Sequence record: NZ_CP016173.1
Direction: 5' to 3' (one strand)
Length of the DNA: 64,000 nt
Origin: a plasmid
Each line of letters begins with the position of its first letter. The first letter of the stretch is position 1. Positions 51,047 to 54,594 of the stretch are shown here, piece after piece. The notes beneath the pieces were generated by a model, which was not told the origin of the DNA, did no database searches, and saw only the letters and a program-made list of their open reading frames with translations. The position numbers and the translations under genes were made by a program.

Positions 51047-51724
51047 ATGACACTACTTCCGGCGTTGCAACCTATCGTTTATGGGCTGACTTCCGAAGTC
51101 CTGGCATACGAAGCTCTTGCCCGTTGGCGCCGCGACGGCAAGATTTTAGGCCCGACGGATCTTCCTGAAGCTCCGCAATGGAGCGGAGTGGACATTGACA
51201 TGCTGTCGGCCATTCTCGACCGCGCAGAAACGGTGTCGGGTATCGCACCGAGGTTATTTATCAATGTCAGTGCGAGCACGATTTCCGAGCCAGGCCGCTT
51301 GGCTACGTGGATCTCGCACCTGGCGAAGATCACAAGCTACGCCACGTTCGCCGTCGTGATCGAAATAACAGAAGGAATTGGCGACGACAAACTGCAAGAG
51401 GCATGGCCTCAGCTCAAGCGCCTTGGTGTCAAGCTGGCTTTGGACGATTTCGGTGATGGGCGGTCATCCAGGGCACGGCTTGTCCGCTATGACTGGGACT
51501 ACTGCAAGTTCGAGGGTCACACTGTACGGGACCACCGCATCCAGGAAGCCATTAGGTATTGCCAGAACAGCGGCATTCTGCCCATCGTGGAGCGGGTGGA
51601 ACATCAGAAAAGCAGCGAAGAGTTCGCGGATATGGGACTGCATTGGCAGCAAGGCTTCCTACACGGGCGTCCCGTGCTTGTCGATAACCTCGCCGAGAGG
51701 ACTGGCAATGTCGTTATCGCATGA
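51047..51724 (+). CDS. Stand-alone EAL-domain protein (putative c-di-GMP phosphodiesterase)
   Basis: 'YEALARW' (EAL motif), 'LALDDFGDGRS' (DDFGTG-like) and 'QGFLHGRP' (QGYxFSxP-like) in order. No GGDEF or sensor domain. Confidence 0.85.
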   Translation: MTLLPALQPIVYGLTSEVLAYEALARWRRDGKILGPTDLPEAPQWSGVDIDMLSAILDRAETVSGIAPRLFINVSASTISEPGRLATWISHLAKITSYATFAVVIEITEGIGDDKLQEAWPQLKRLGVKLALDDFGDGRSSRARLVRYDWDYCKFEGHTVRDHRIQEAIRYCQNSGILPIVERVEHQKSSEEFADMGLHWQQGFLHGRPVLVDNLAERTGNVVIA

Positions 51725-51888
51725 GCGATGCAAAGTCGCCGCTGCCATCGCGCTTTTGCAGAACGCAACCGTACCCGGATGACCATGAATAGCCATCCAC
51801 GCAAGCCGCCGTAAGGCCTCCCAAAAAGTAAATCATCCAGTCCACGAGACGCCTATCTCCCGCCAAGCCATGGCGGGTAGGGATTCTT

Positions 51889-54594
51889 TTGCCCAAAAGG
51901 TTTGAACCTATGCCGACATCTCGCAATCAACAGGAAGGGTTTGCACGTCGAGCTCGCCGTATACGAAGCGTGAGCGCCCTAGTACTTCTCGCGTTCGCAG
52001 TCCAAGGCTGCACCGCGCCGCTGACGGGCACCCGCCTCCAGGCTGCTCCCCCAAGTGCAGCGCTCCCGGGGCAGCCTTCCTCGGCGGCAGATCCCCTTGG
52101 CAACGTCATGCCGCATCGTGTGCTTCCCCAAGAGACATCTCCCAATCAGGCGATGTCGGAGGCGAGCGCCCGAAGACAGTCTCAACAGGGAGGGGCGATT
52201 AATCTGGAAGGACAGACGATCGATATGGCTGGAAGTGGCCGCTCTGGCGCGGCCCAGTCATTCGTATCGGGCTTGGCCGTATCTGGGGCTCAGAAGGCCA
52301 TGCAAGACTGGCTGAATCAGTTCGGCACGGCACGCCTGGGGCTGGATGCGGGGTCTTTTCACGGTGGAAGCCTCGACATGTTATTTCCGCTGTACGACGC
52401 CAAGAAATCGTCGCTGATTTTCAGCCAGGTGGGGGTGCGCCGTAACGATCGGTTCACGGACAGCTACCGAACCACCGTCAATGTGGGCCTTGGGTATCGC
52501 CATTTCTTCGACAAGGTGATGTTGGGGGCCAACGCCTTCTACGATGCGGACGTGACGCGAGGGAATCGGCGGTATGGCCTGGGCGCGGAGGTGTGGGCCG
52601 ACTACCTCAAGCTCAATGCCAACGGGTACTTCCGCACGAGCGGCTGGAAGAAGTCGCCTGACATGGACAACATGCTGGAGCGACCGGCTAACGGCTTTGA
52701 CCTCCGCGCTGAAGGCTATCTGCCGCAATTACCTCAGGTGGGTGCCAAGCTCATCTACGAGAAATACTATGGGCACGATGTCGGGCTTTTTGGATCACAT
52801 GATCGCCAAGAAAACCCCTCAGCCTGGACAGTCGGGCTGACGTACACCCCGGTGCCGGCGATGACCTTCGGTATCGAGCAGCGCATGGGGCAAGGCGGTC
52901 GTAATGAGACGGCCTTAACTATTGGCATGCGGTATGCGATCGGTGTGCCGCTGAACAAGCAGTTTGCGTTCAATGAAAATGCGGTGGCGGCGAGCCGCAA
53001 GCTGAAGAATATGCGCCAGGATCTGGTTGAGCGCAACAATGACATCGTGCTGGAATATCGGCAGGATCGCATCATCGGCGTACAGCTGCCAGGCACTGCG
53101 AGCGGTATTGAAGGATCGCAGCTTACGTTTCCAGTGAATTTGGTAGCCAACAAAGGTACGCCACAAGTTCTGTGGTCGGGCTCAGCCGCAGGTTTTGCGT
53201 TGCCTTACGGTGGATCGGGTAGCGGAATCCTGACGCTGCCGGCATACAACCCGAACGGCAATAACACATACCAGCTCGTGGCAACGGCGGCCGAAGGGAC
53301 ATACAAAGTTCAATCCAATGCGATGACCATCACGGTGAACGCGGCGCCCGTGGCCGCTTTGCGCGTTATGCTGGAGCGCAGCAAAGCCGTCGCATCGGCC
53401 GATGGCACCGACGCGGTGACATTCACGGCCACCGTGAAAGACAGTAAAGAGCAGCCAGTGGCCGATACCGCGGTTGCCTGGAAAGTGACCAAGGGAACTG
53501 CATCGTTCAAGTCCTTGGCACGAACGACGAATCGTAATGGCCAGGCTGCGGCCGTCGTGACGAGTTTGAAAGCGGACGACGTTGCCGTGCAAGTCACGCT
53601 CGCGGATGGTACAGCGGCCCAAAGTGACACACGCTTTTCGGTCGATACGGCAAGCGCTGCGGTCATTCAGTTGGACGGCGCCCCGTCCACGCCTCAAGTT
53701 GCAAACAGCACCGACGTGTTGACGCTTAAGGCCACCATCAAGGACAAATCCGGCAGTAATGTCGGCGCGGGCATCGTCGTGCATTGGCATGCTGACCGGG
53801 GTGTACTAAGTGCGGCCTCGTCTCTGACAGATGACAACGGGGTGGCAGTGGTCAATTTCACCGCGCCCTCTACTGTCGGCGATGTGCATGTGACGGCAAC
53901 CGGCGCGGCGGGCGATCCCGGCAAGATGGCGACAATTACGTATGTAGCGGACCTGGCAACCGCCACGGTGGCGCAGTTAGATGGCGCACCAGCTGGCAGT
54001 CAGCCTGCTAATGGATCGGATGTCGTGACGCTGCAGGCCACGGTCAAAGACAGGAACGGCAACCCCGTAGGGCCTGGCGTTGCCGTGAGCTGGAGTACCG
54101 ACATTGGCACGTTGAGCGCCGGAACCTCTTCCACCGATGGCGACGGGAAGGCTCAAACGCGGCTGAAGGCGCCGTTGTCTGCAGGTACTGCCCACGTGAC
54201 GGCAAAAGCCGCAGCGAGCGATGCAGGCAAGACGTTAGCGATTGAATATGTGCTGGATTTAAATTCCGCACGCGCTGAGATTACTGACGTTTCGGAAAAT
54301 TGGGACCAGGGCGACTTCAGCAGCCGGTACTGGGACATCACGGTCAAAGCATGGGATGTCTCAGGAGACGTGAAAGCGCCGGGCGCGACAGTCACCTTCT
54401 CGTCCACCAGCGAGGGTAACTTCATGACGCCTGTTACTGTAATCGCAAGTGGATCGGGCAAGGCAAGTGCACTATTCCGAATCCCTTCGGGCGATCTAGC
54501 ATGCGGGGACTCAAGGTCTGCCACCCTTACAGTCAAGGCGTCGGCCAGCGATCCGGGCGTTACCAGGGTTCTTACGGCATTCGGTGACTGCTGA
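51889..54594 (+). CDS. Invasin/intimin-family inverse autotransporter adhesin with tandem bacterial Ig-like (Big_1-type) domains
   Basis: Lipoprotein-like signal 'AFAVQGC', an N-terminal beta-barrel region rich in aromatic/Gly beta-strands, then about 4 repeats of roughly 100 aa each of 'DAVTFTATVKD..G.PV......W....G'. C-terminal Cys pair. Confidence 0.75.
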   Translation: MPKRFEPMPTSRNQQEGFARRARRIRSVSALVLLAFAVQGCTAPLTGTRLQAAPPSAALPGQPSSAADPLGNVMPHRVLPQETSPNQAMSEASARRQSQQGGAINLEGQTIDMAGSGRSGAAQSFVSGLAVSGAQKAMQDWLNQFGTARLGLDAGSFHGGSLDMLFPLYDAKKSSLIFSQVGVRRNDRFTDSYRTTVNVGLGYRHFFDKVMLGANAFYDADVTRGNRRYGLGAEVWADYLKLNANGYFRTSGWKKSPDMDNMLERPANGFDLRAEGYLPQLPQVGAKLIYEKYYGHDVGLFGSHDRQENPSAWTVGLTYTPVPAMTFGIEQRMGQGGRNETALTIGMRYAIGVPLNKQFAFNENAVAASRKLKNMRQDLVERNNDIVLEYRQDRIIGVQLPGTASGIEGSQLTFPVNLVANKGTPQVLWSGSAAGFALPYGGSGSGILTLPAYNPNGNNTYQLVATAAEGTYKVQSNAMTITVNAAPVAALRVMLERSKAVASADGTDAVTFTATVKDSKEQPVADTAVAWKVTKGTASFKSLARTTNRNGQAAAVVTSLKADDVAVQVTLADGTAAQSDTRFSVDTASAAVIQLDGAPSTPQVANSTDVLTLKATIKDKSGSNVGAGIVVHWHADRGVLSAASSLTDDNGVAVVNFTAPSTVGDVHVTATGAAGDPGKMATITYVADLATATVAQLDGAPAGSQPANGSDVVTLQATVKDRNGNPVGPGVAVSWSTDIGTLSAGTSSTDGDGKAQTRLKAPLSAGTAHVTAKAAASDAGKTLAIEYVLDLNSARAEITDVSENWDQGDFSSRYWDITVKAWDVSGDVKAPGATVTFSSTSEGNFMTPVTVIASGSGKASALFRIPSGDLACGDSRSATLTVKASASDPGVTRVLTAFGDC

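Follow-up and report, generated by a model that had tools for sequence, protein, structure and literature searches.

Gene organization of the dotA–EAL locus

The window analyzed, a stretch of 64,000 nucleotides from the sequence record NZ_CP016173.1, derives from a conjugative plasmid of Bordetella flabilis that is IncI-like and of type IVB; no near-identical plasmid was found in PLSDB. The ORFs of dotA/traY, an EAL gene and an adhesin gene were all confirmed at the positions given below, and their matches are at the HMM level, far beyond chance. dotA/traY (48631–51021, plus strand) encodes a type IVB secretion system membrane protein of 796 aa, which matches the full length of TIGR04346 DotA_TraY (profile positions 2–655 of 656, E = 3.8e-112, 376 bits vs. 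a cut-off of 100). It is preceded by an AT-rich divergent region and the SD sequence AAGGGGA, and its orthologues in the related elements L001, L002, L005, and L007 are 63–81% identical with dN/dS values of 0.05–0.08. The EAL gene (51047–51724, plus strand) is a backbone gene that begins 25 nt past the dotA stop codon, has its own Shine–Dalgarno sequence, GGTGGA, and encodes a stand-alone EAL protein of 225 aa without sensor domain and signal peptide. This short spacing and the lack of a predicted terminator suggest that it is most likely co-transcribed with dotA/traY as the second gene of a two-gene dotA–EAL unit.

Downstream of this unit lies a segment unique to this plasmid (51725–54790), which contains the gene of an inverse autotransporter (type Ve) adhesin (51889–54594, plus strand), its leader and a 3′ hairpin. 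The hairpin, a GC-rich stem-loop AGGCCGGTCC-TGG-GACCGGCCT (54610–54633, plus strand) identified from sequence and folding just past the adhesin stop codon, is a probable terminator between convergent genes. The next gene, convergent with dotA–EAL, is a conserved backbone gene for a coiled-coil protein of 257 aa (54769–55542, minus strand), whose orthologues (262–271 aa, 53–69% identical, dN/dS ~0.10) directly follow the EAL gene in L001, L002, L005, and L007. The plasmid also encodes a thin pilus of the IncI type with a PilV-like adhesin at its tip, the means by which IncI-type plasmids usually stabilize mating. An MshEN c-di-GMP-binding domain was not found on the thin-pilus ATPase, in which Pfam recognized only T2SSE from residue 93.

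Fold and catalytic residues of the EAL protein

The EAL protein matched Pfam EAL (PF00563) with E = 2.5e-30 over profile positions 13–236 of 236, and its AlphaFold model (pLDDT 95.7) is a confident EAL (beta/alpha) barrel. The top Foldseek matches were all EAL phosphodiesterases (TM 0.77–0.79), among them YahA, MorA, TBD1265, PdeA, PA3825, and RocR. The expected motifs are present as YEALAR (E22, R26), DDFGDG (aa 133–138), and QQGFLHGRP (aa 201–209). The earlier note's stand-alone EAL protein, encoded next to dotA on a conjugative element and intact in its catalytic core, is borne out at the sequence level by Pfam, the motifs and TIGR04346. In the family of 37 members assembled around this protein, E22, R26, N73, E106, E109, D133, D134, K154, E182, and Q202 are invariant (37/37) down to 27% identity. 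The metal ligands E22, N73, E106, D133, D134, and E182 correspond to identical residues in an alignment with 83 generic EALs, and the other invariant positions include the catalytic K154, the substrate-binding R26 and Q202, and E109, which anchors loop 6.

Nine of the ten canonical catalytic residues are kept across the family. The tenth, which corresponds to Glu546 of TBD1265 and belongs to the “lAE” motif, is missing from all members: hmmalign treats the generic “lAE” residues as an insertion with respect to the family, E41 is not conserved, and the invariant W45 starts the helix that follows the missing motif. The residues named in the earlier note, the Glu of EAL and the two aspartates, are invariant. 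The missing glutamate is among the ten residues to which importance for activity is ascribed (PMC6629876, PMC3527489). Loop 6 of the EAL protein reads DDFGDGRSS, in which D133, D134, and G136 are invariant and the T/A-G-Y positions vary in the family. In 2009, Rao et al. reportedly described the loop 6 motif as DFG(T/A)GYSS. The missing “lAE” motif and the divergent loop 6 mean that activity or substrate could differ from those of textbook EALs. In comparison with characterized EAL phosphodiesterases (TBD1265, RocR, YahA/PdeL, PA3825, BlrP1), the B. flabilis protein has the same barrel, metal ligands, and catalytic Lys, Arg, and Gln, but it is about 20 residues shorter, lacks a sensor or partner domain as well as the Glu546-equivalent motif, differs in loop 6, and carries family-specific Trp and Cys residues. 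The dN/dS of the EAL gene was ~0.09 (0.088–0.095) compared with 0.05–0.08 for dotA and 0.10 for the recombinase, which indicates that it is under purifying selection like dotA.

A family of EAL proteins embedded in conjugation gene clusters

The EAL protein belongs to a distinct clade of minimal (218–244 aa) EAL-only proteins encoded in T4SS gene clusters. Six residues (W45, D49, W88, W150, C153, C172) form a family signature, being invariant within the clade and absent or rare in 83 other EALs. The genomic context was inspected for 13 members, a choice biased to long contigs, and all 13 sit inside conjugation gene clusters: six after dotA, six between trbC/traW and traU, and one after the coupling protein gene. 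The start and stop codons of the trbC/traW–EAL–traU members overlap or nearly do so, and ORF080 of pAQU1 is also located between traW and traU (PMC4036041). The trbC–EAL–traU segment was found in at least 805 PLSDB plasmids of IncA/IncC type, and 868 of the 884 matching PLSDB plasmids are predicted to be conjugative, while a scan of GTDB species representatives with the EAL family gave one locus only. Hence the connection of the EAL gene with conjugation is much stronger than the earlier note could see, as the family lives inside transfer operons.

The carriers of the clade are IncA/IncC resistance plasmids, pAQU1-type plasmids, Halomonas and Eoetvoesiella elements, and the type IVB lineage of the B. 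flabilis plasmid. The closest comparison is offered by the EAL protein of the IncA (pRA1), IncC-like and pAQU1-type MOBH/MPF-F plasmids, which belongs to the same family (41% identity over 218 aa without gaps): the IncA/IncC-like and B. flabilis proteins are both 225 aa long, share the signature residues and are encoded within a transfer operon. However, the B. flabilis plasmid has MPF-I (type IVB) machinery and the IncA/IncC-like plasmids have MPF-F, and the gene follows dotA/traY in the former, whereas it lies between traW and traU in the latter. In a neighbor-joining tree, the dotA-linked EALs formed one clade nested among the traW–traU-linked ones. At least one move of the gene between unrelated types of secretion system may have taken place, which would point to a benefit for conjugation itself rather than for a particular host. 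In the IncI1 plasmids, the entry exclusion gene excA follows traY; the EAL gene as an occupant of this slot was rejected because its product has no membrane segment and its catalytic site is intact.

The literature searched contained neither biochemical data on any member of the family nor a functional study of a tra-embedded EAL gene. From the fold, the conserved residues, the selection, and the genomic association described above, we infer that the protein is most likely a metal-dependent c-di-GMP phosphodiesterase of the cytoplasm. Its production would always accompany that of the transfer apparatus, and it would lower the c-di-GMP level of donors competent for transfer, or do so locally at the secretion machine. 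It is unlikely that it is instead a nonhydrolytic c-di-GMP sensor or protein-binding regulator similar to FimX, LapD or YdiV, which gates the T4SS directly. The loss of one of the ten canonical residues and the divergent loop 6 would fit such a role; the invariant W45, D49, W88, W150, C153, and C172 point to an additional surface under conservation, the gene is embedded tightly among structural T4SS genes, and Icm/Dot translocation in Legionella is modulated post-translationally by c-di-GMP signaling (bioRxiv 10.1101/754762). On the other hand, none of the six metal ligands varies even at 27% identity, nor does the catalytic Lys, while in the known EAL receptors the metal sites are degenerate, and FimX retains only 4 of the 10 residues (PMC3527489). 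The phosphodiesterase reading is preferred.

Structure of the inverse autotransporter

The adhesin was originally described as a 901-aa inverse autotransporter. This length is obtained when the ORF is counted from the first TTG codon (51889), while the ATG at 51910, which gives 894 aa, is the more likely start judging from the sequence, as it matches the start of the orthologue P0122. The protein is 100% identical to BAU07_26290 from the B. flabilis plasmid, for which the annotation gives 73 aa less (828 aa). The annotated GenBank start lies downstream of the signal peptide, RRARRIRSVSALVLLAFAVQGC, which was located by inspection at aa 20–41, thus the deposited start codon cuts off the signal peptide. 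A Cys following its hydrophobic region is kept in P0122, P0124, P0138, and P0140, and this putative signal peptide may be lipidated.

The gene is preceded by a conserved 5′ leader (51837–51909, plus strand) with a hairpin, CCCGCCA-N5-TGGCGGG (51860–51878), followed by a U-rich run, which can pair with the A-rich SD region according to folding. This leader is 76% identical to that of the orthologous adhesin in L019, although the upstream genes differ. No c-di-GMP riboswitch or other known RNA was detected between the EAL gene and the adhesin gene, where an Rfam search at E ≤ 10 gave noise only.

Domain annotation confirmed the predicted barrel and invasin-like organization. The outer-membrane beta-barrel (52243–53040, plus strand; aa 119–384) matched IAT_beta (PF11924) with E = 9.1e-88 over profile positions 19–279 of 279 and is N-terminal to the passenger, and the whole protein also matched Big_1 (E = 7.9e-44) and Invasin_D3 (E = 8.7e-27). 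The passenger stalk (53071–54255, plus strand) consists of a D0-like Ig domain (aa ~396–484) and three Big_1 repeats (aa ~492–584, 591–686, and 693–788), which, searched as separate pieces, matched Big_1 with E = 2.8e-19, 9.7e-12, and 2.2e-16; the stalk DNA has a period of 303–306 nt. The stalk is followed by a C-terminal Ig-like tip with two conserved Cys residues (54271–54591, plus strand; aa 795–901). The AlphaFold model of aa 385–901 (pLDDT 88.7) comprises five all-beta Ig-like domains, thus the Ig-like repeats are real, but the initial estimate of about four was slightly low. Foldseek matches include invasin (1CWV), FdeC (4E9L), InvD (5LDY), and intimin D0–D1 (6TPL). The tip shows only a weak similarity to Invasin_D3 (E = 1e-3), and a single true homologue, that of P0122 (55% identity), was found among 1.84 billion representative proteins. 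A C-type lectin-like tip was ruled out by the Ig-like, all-beta model devoid of helices.

With its signal peptide, barrel and tandem Ig passenger, the protein fits the type Ve class, but it is not an intimin or invasin proper, scoring 346 bits with NCBIfam intimin_all against a cut-off of 1400. The IAT_beta barrel followed by tandem Big_1 domains is common to invasin, intimin, FdeC, InvD, and the Achromobacter inverse autotransporters; however, the B. flabilis adhesin is much shorter (5 Ig domains vs. 10 or more), has neither LysM nor a C-type lectin-like tip, and ends in the rare two-Cys Ig-like tip shared only with P0122. The proteins closest to it are inverse autotransporters encoded on Achromobacter chromosomes (44–51% identity), while its sole close orthologue is located on an unrelated TrwC/TrwB conjugative element beside the relaxase and coupling protein genes.

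The adhesin gene as a probable accessory insertion

The related plasmids comprise five elements of 116–122 kb, originating from Achromobacter insolitus, Castellaniella, a Thauera MAG, and two read-archive assemblies. In all five, dotA and the EAL gene are followed by the minus-strand coiled-coil gene without an adhesin, thus the ~3.1-kb adhesin segment is present in one of the six plasmids of the lineage, that of B. flabilis. The blastn homology to L001, L002, L004, L005, and L007 ends at 51667–51684 and restarts at 54791–54869, an interval that in the relatives spans no more than ~100–460 bp. The borders of the insert were narrowed to 51684–51837 on the left and 54595–54790 on the right. The next-closest DotA plasmids, P. 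syringae pSP13-1 and Xanthomonas pF, lack the EAL gene too, and its absence there, together with the absence of the adhesin from the relatives, fits a stepwise insertion at this site. A weak inverted repeat (26 nt, 73%) near the insert borders may be due to chance, and the GC content of the insert (0.593 vs. 0.578 for the plasmid, with similar GC3) is uninformative on foreign origin. Delivery by an IS element or transposon was rejected, as no transposase was found. Considering these data, the adhesin is most likely accessory cargo in the gap between the convergent genes downstream of dotA–EAL; the inverse autotransporter would have been inserted only in the B. flabilis plasmid and would be evolutionarily independent of the EAL gene.

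The earlier note had suggested that c-di-GMP hydrolysis and a surface adhesin could couple donor-cell aggregation or biofilm state to mating. In this model the two genes form one module, with a dedicated adhesin that stabilizes mating pairs or donor–recipient aggregates. This attractive idea, which the present analysis corrects as unsupported, now appears quite improbable. Its appeal came from the adjacency and common orientation of the two genes beside dotA, and the only close orthologue of the adhesin also belongs to a conjugative element, where the genes for the relaxase and the coupling protein are its neighbors. MPF-F elements with a homologous EAL encode giant Ig-like (Big) proteins heading the same tra region, and the Big protein of an IncA/C plasmid is required for conjugation at 25°C (PMC8730810). 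However, the adjacency occurs in 1/6 of the lineage, the orthologous adhesin has no EAL gene nearby on the TrwC/TrwB element, and the conserved hairpin and U-run separate the two genes here. The proposal that the adhesin serves as a mating-pair stabilizer fared no better, since it is missing from the relatives and the plasmid already has its thin pilus with the PilV-like adhesin. The Big proteins are not close counterparts either: RSP/RSP2 of the IncHI plasmid R27 and ALG87338.1 of the IncA/C plasmid pKAZ3 are Big_3/DUF4165 proteins of ~1,800 aa, exported by the conjugative pilus machinery and not type Ve (PMC8730810). Like them, the B. flabilis adhesin is a plasmid-encoded surface or secreted Ig-like protein near transfer genes, but it is a self-exporting type Ve protein with Big_1 and IAT_beta domains and, unlike RSP and ALG87338.1, is not conserved in its plasmid lineage. 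As independent cargo, its beta-barrel would display five Ig-like domains on the cell surface, most likely giving the host adhesion or aggregation; a side effect on mating or a transfer-related role may exist, given that its closest orthologue is also next to conjugation genes.

Possible role of the EAL family in conjugation

Taken together, we consider it fairly probable that the EAL protein is active as a c-di-GMP phosphodiesterase and expressed jointly with the transfer apparatus, and that the adhesin is independent accessory cargo. Degradation of another cyclic (oligo)nucleotide, such as a CBASS-type defense signal, as a plasmid counter-defense is very improbable: the segment in place of the “lAE” motif is peculiar to this family, whose members are confined to mobile elements, and the deposition of the stand-alone Vibrio EAL 6ifq calls it a “cyclic di nucleotide phosphodiesterase” and “versatile,” but the gene lies in late structural tra operons and not in the leading region, PADLOC finds no meaningful match for it or its neighbors, the site for phosphate and metal is as in standard EALs acting on c-di-GMP, and direct evidence is lacking.

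The building blocks of the window, an EAL protein, an inverse autotransporter, and DotA, are ordinary. Nevertheless, about 800 sequenced multidrug-resistance plasmids of IncA/IncC type and several other conjugative systems carry the same small predicted enzyme. We tentatively suggest, as a possibility with the odds somewhat against it, that the minimal EAL clade is an unrecognized accessory of conjugative T4SS operons, with c-di-GMP gating transfer or the donor surface state at mating, to the benefit of conjugation itself. If the EAL protein indeed controls c-di-GMP in mating, the plasmids themselves would wire the biofilm/motility switch to the spread of resistance. According to passages of PMC3915882 and PMC10333796 that cite Bordeleau 2010 and Madsen 2018, the diguanylate cyclases DgcK/DgcL are encoded on SXT/R391 ICEs and c-di-GMP genes occur on plasmids. 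As far as these passages describe them, DgcK/DgcL likewise represent a mobile element manipulating host c-di-GMP; however, they are cyclases in variable cargo and raise c-di-GMP, whereas the B. flabilis EAL protein is of the hydrolase type and belongs to a conserved transfer module.

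Gene order downstream of dotA

The contexts of EAL homologues sharing 54–79% identity with the window protein were retrieved on contigs of up to 116–122 kb from Achromobacter insolitus, Castellaniella, a Thauera MAG, and two read-archive assemblies. In all these relatives, dotA is followed 15–37 nt on by the EAL gene, then by a minus-strand coiled-coil gene (262–271 aa), further genes, and a tyrosine recombinase, and the adhesin gene was absent from the dotA–EAL locus in every retrieved context. In blastn comparisons with these relatives, homology was lost at 51667–51684 and came back at 54791–54869, thus a segment of approximately 3.1 kb is found in the B. 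flabilis plasmid alone. Two PLSDB plasmids come next in DotA similarity (~50% identity), Pseudomonas syringae pSP13-1 and Xanthomonas pF; both have a coiled-coil-sized gene immediately after dotA and lack the EAL gene as well. By this comparison, the gap between the convergent genes was used twice, by the EAL gene in the clade ancestor and again by the adhesin.

The gene of the orthologous adhesin P0122 (874–3240 bp of the metagenomic contig L019) lies convergent to and beside those of a TrwC relaxase and a TrwB/TraG coupling protein, and its upstream neighbor is an M15 peptidase gene, not an EAL gene. The coupled EAL–adhesin module of the earlier note is thus unsupported, as dotA–EAL loci exist without the adhesin and the orthologous adhesin has no EAL neighbor. 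A weak inverted repeat (51738–51763/54685–54710, 26 nt, 73% complementary) was noticed just inside both borders of the adhesin segment, which may be an insertion relic or may have arisen by chance.

The EAL gene and its product

The dotA gene (48631–51021, plus strand) encodes a DotA/TraY protein scoring 376 bits with TIGR04346 (cut-off 100). The EAL gene (51047–51724, plus strand) starts 25 nt past the dotA stop codon and is preceded by a ribosome-binding site of its own. As predictions placed no plus-strand terminator between the two genes, we infer that they are co-transcribed. The 225-aa product matches the Pfam EAL domain across almost the whole profile (E = 2.5e-30), which bears out the stand-alone EAL protein recognized earlier. 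Compared with its two closest relatives, the dN/dS of the EAL gene was 0.088–0.095, next to 0.05–0.08 for dotA and ~0.10 for the recombinase; judged from these ratios, the gene is backbone-like and under purifying selection.

In the alignment of 37 family members, reaching down to 27% identity, E22, R26, N73, E106, E109, D133, D134, K154, E182, and Q202 are invariant, and these ten positions line up with the canonical ones in PA3825 and 83 generic EAL domains. Substitution of the EAL glutamate (E22) or of the aspartates D133/D134, which the earlier note had named as evidence against its reading, was therefore not seen in any of the 37. The AlphaFold model is a confident EAL barrel (pLDDT 95.7) with structural matches at TM 0.77–0.79 to YahA, MorA, TBD1265, PdeA, PA3825, RocR, and BlrP1. 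Of the ten residues listed for TBD1265 (PMC6629876; PMC3527489), nine are kept in the window family, whereas FimX, a receptor-type EAL protein, retains only four (PMC3527489). The exception is the equivalent of Glu546 ("lAE" motif), which falls within a stretch deleted from the family; an invariant Trp starts the helix after it. Loop 6 of the window protein reads DDFGDGRSS. Based on these residues and the model, the protein is probably an active but divergent phosphodiesterase.

The EAL family in transfer operons

Among plasmid genes, the strongest matches (41% identity, gap-free over 218 aa) are annotated "EAL domain-containing protein" and belong to pRA1 (IncA) and its relatives, where trbC/traW and traU flank the gene and codons overlap. 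The same trbC/traW–EAL–traU order occurs in Eoetvoesiella caeni, Halomonas sp. LBP4, and three metagenomic contigs, and one more family member comes after a coupling protein. Altogether, conjugation gene clusters surround all 13 of the 13 members whose context was read. The 2.9-kb trbC–EAL–traU segment of pRA1 matches 884 PLSDB plasmids (805 at a coverage of at least 80%), 868 of which are predicted to be conjugative; 47 matches have at least 99% identity and 751 have 80–90%. In a neighbor-joining tree without support values, the dotA-linked EAL proteins form one clade nested among the traW–traU-linked ones, which suggests a single capture of the gene by the type IVB lineage. No published study of a tra-embedded EAL gene was found in the literature covered, which was limited and does not prove absence. 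This transfer-operon-specific clade of minimal EAL proteins, which the window plasmid shares with IncA/IncC resistance plasmids, is a by-product that deserves experiments.

The MPF-F elements with a homologous EAL gene mostly encode a large Big-domain protein just upstream of dsbC–traC (retrieved contigs L003, 1–614; L009, 1–4322; L011, 179–2598; L013, 1–308; L014, 1–388). These proteins range from 807 to >1,800 aa with Big_3, Big_9, and DUF4165 domains, and their class reportedly aids IncA/C conjugation at 25°C (PMC8730810).

What the data demonstrate for the EAL protein is its fold, its active-site residues, purifying selection on its gene, and a strict linkage to transfer genes in the genomes. 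In the role we propose, it would hydrolyze c-di-GMP while the transfer genes are expressed, by which the c-di-GMP level would fall in donors competent for transfer or close to the secretion machine. Transfer could benefit from reduced production of matrix or adhesins that hinder contact, from a shift of the cells toward motility, or from direct action on the secretion machine. Such links have precedents: c-di-GMP genes are enriched on plasmids (PMC10333796), Icm/Dot translocation in Legionella is tuned by a diguanylate cyclase (bioRxiv 10.1101/754762), and ICE-encoded cyclases alter c-di-GMP in Vibrio, according to work cited in PMC3915882.

The adhesin

The adhesin ORF (51889–54594, plus strand) encodes an inverse-autotransporter beta domain (aa 119–384, E = 9e-88), three Big_1 domains, and Invasin_D3, so the domain annotation asked for in the earlier note did find the barrel. 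Its Ig-like passenger also stood, with the count of about four repeats slightly low: the passenger model (pLDDT 88.7) gives five all-beta domains, of which one is D0-like, three are Big_1 repeats, and the last forms the tip. Structural matches of the passenger include invasin, FdeC, InvD, and intimin D0–D1; a helix-containing lectin-like tip is absent from the model, and the adhesin scores far below the cut-off of the NCBIfam intimin model.

The deposited protein (828 aa from Met74) lacks an N-terminal part that is encoded within 51889–52110. Since the signal peptide RRARRIRSVSALVLLAFAVQGC and a conserved cysteine (Cys41) are encoded upstream of this GenBank start, the start is placed too far downstream, and export needs the longer ORF beginning at ATG 51910, the counterpart of the P0122 start, or at TTG 51889. 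Cys41 follows the hydrophobic core and is kept in four homologues, including one with a canonical LLASC lipobox; the adhesin may be lipidated. The leader (51837–51931) has 76% identity to 796–895 bp of L019 across two unrelated plasmid contexts. It contains a predicted hairpin (CCCGCCA-N5-TGGCGGG) followed by a U-run able to pair with the A-rich Shine–Dalgarno region, and could act as an attenuator or a fourU-like RNA thermometer; with these two sequences only, fold z-scores were not significant and no Rfam family matched.

Among 1.84 billion representative proteins, the tip domain had one real homologue, P0122, which is 62% identical to the adhesin overall, has one Big_1 repeat fewer, and shares the rare two-Cys tip. 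Other relatives are long chromosomal inverse autotransporters of Achromobacter, and one relative lies in an accessory region of an Achromobacter plasmid. Given these relatives and the lack of an EAL neighbor at P0122, the adhesin is treated as mobile cargo. As both copies of the short form adjoin conjugation genes, the adhesin may have a side role in transfer. Conjugation of IncHI and IncA/C plasmids does benefit from Ig-like proteins (PMC8730810), but those are Big_3/DUF4165 proteins of another secretion type than the adhesin. The window genes belong to known kinds. The short adhesin form has so far been seen only on conjugative elements (two copies).

Plasmid setting

Bordetella flabilis proteins are 100% identical to both the EAL protein and the adhesin; the latter (BAU07_26290) is plasmid-borne by annotation, on a contig of ~118.6 kb. 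The window also encodes RepA, an IncI-type thin-pilus cluster (8075–18046, minus strand) with PilN secretin, PilO, a PilQ-like ATPase, PilR-like and PilV-like proteins, and a type IVB set (DotB, a DotG-like protein, DotM, and a TrbC-like protein); therefore, the plasmid is an IncI-like type IVB conjugative element. A relaxase was not identified in the window. The PilV-like protein (8075–9376) combines a Shufflon_N domain with a collagen-like C-terminal repeat, and the region around pilV (6300–9500) showed no shufflon-type repeats. The Xer-like tyrosine recombinase (57620–58750, minus strand) is kept in all related plasmids at 73–78% identity, and more likely functions in plasmid resolution or recombination than as an ICE integrase. 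Three minus-strand ORFs of the transfer region (23444–26533, 26699–27886, and 34358–35503; 1029, 395, and 381 aa) had no Pfam or NCBIfam match. A protein with a LigD-type ATP-dependent DNA ligase domain and an RdgC homologue adjoin repA (1516–2514, minus strand, and 3650–4732, plus strand).
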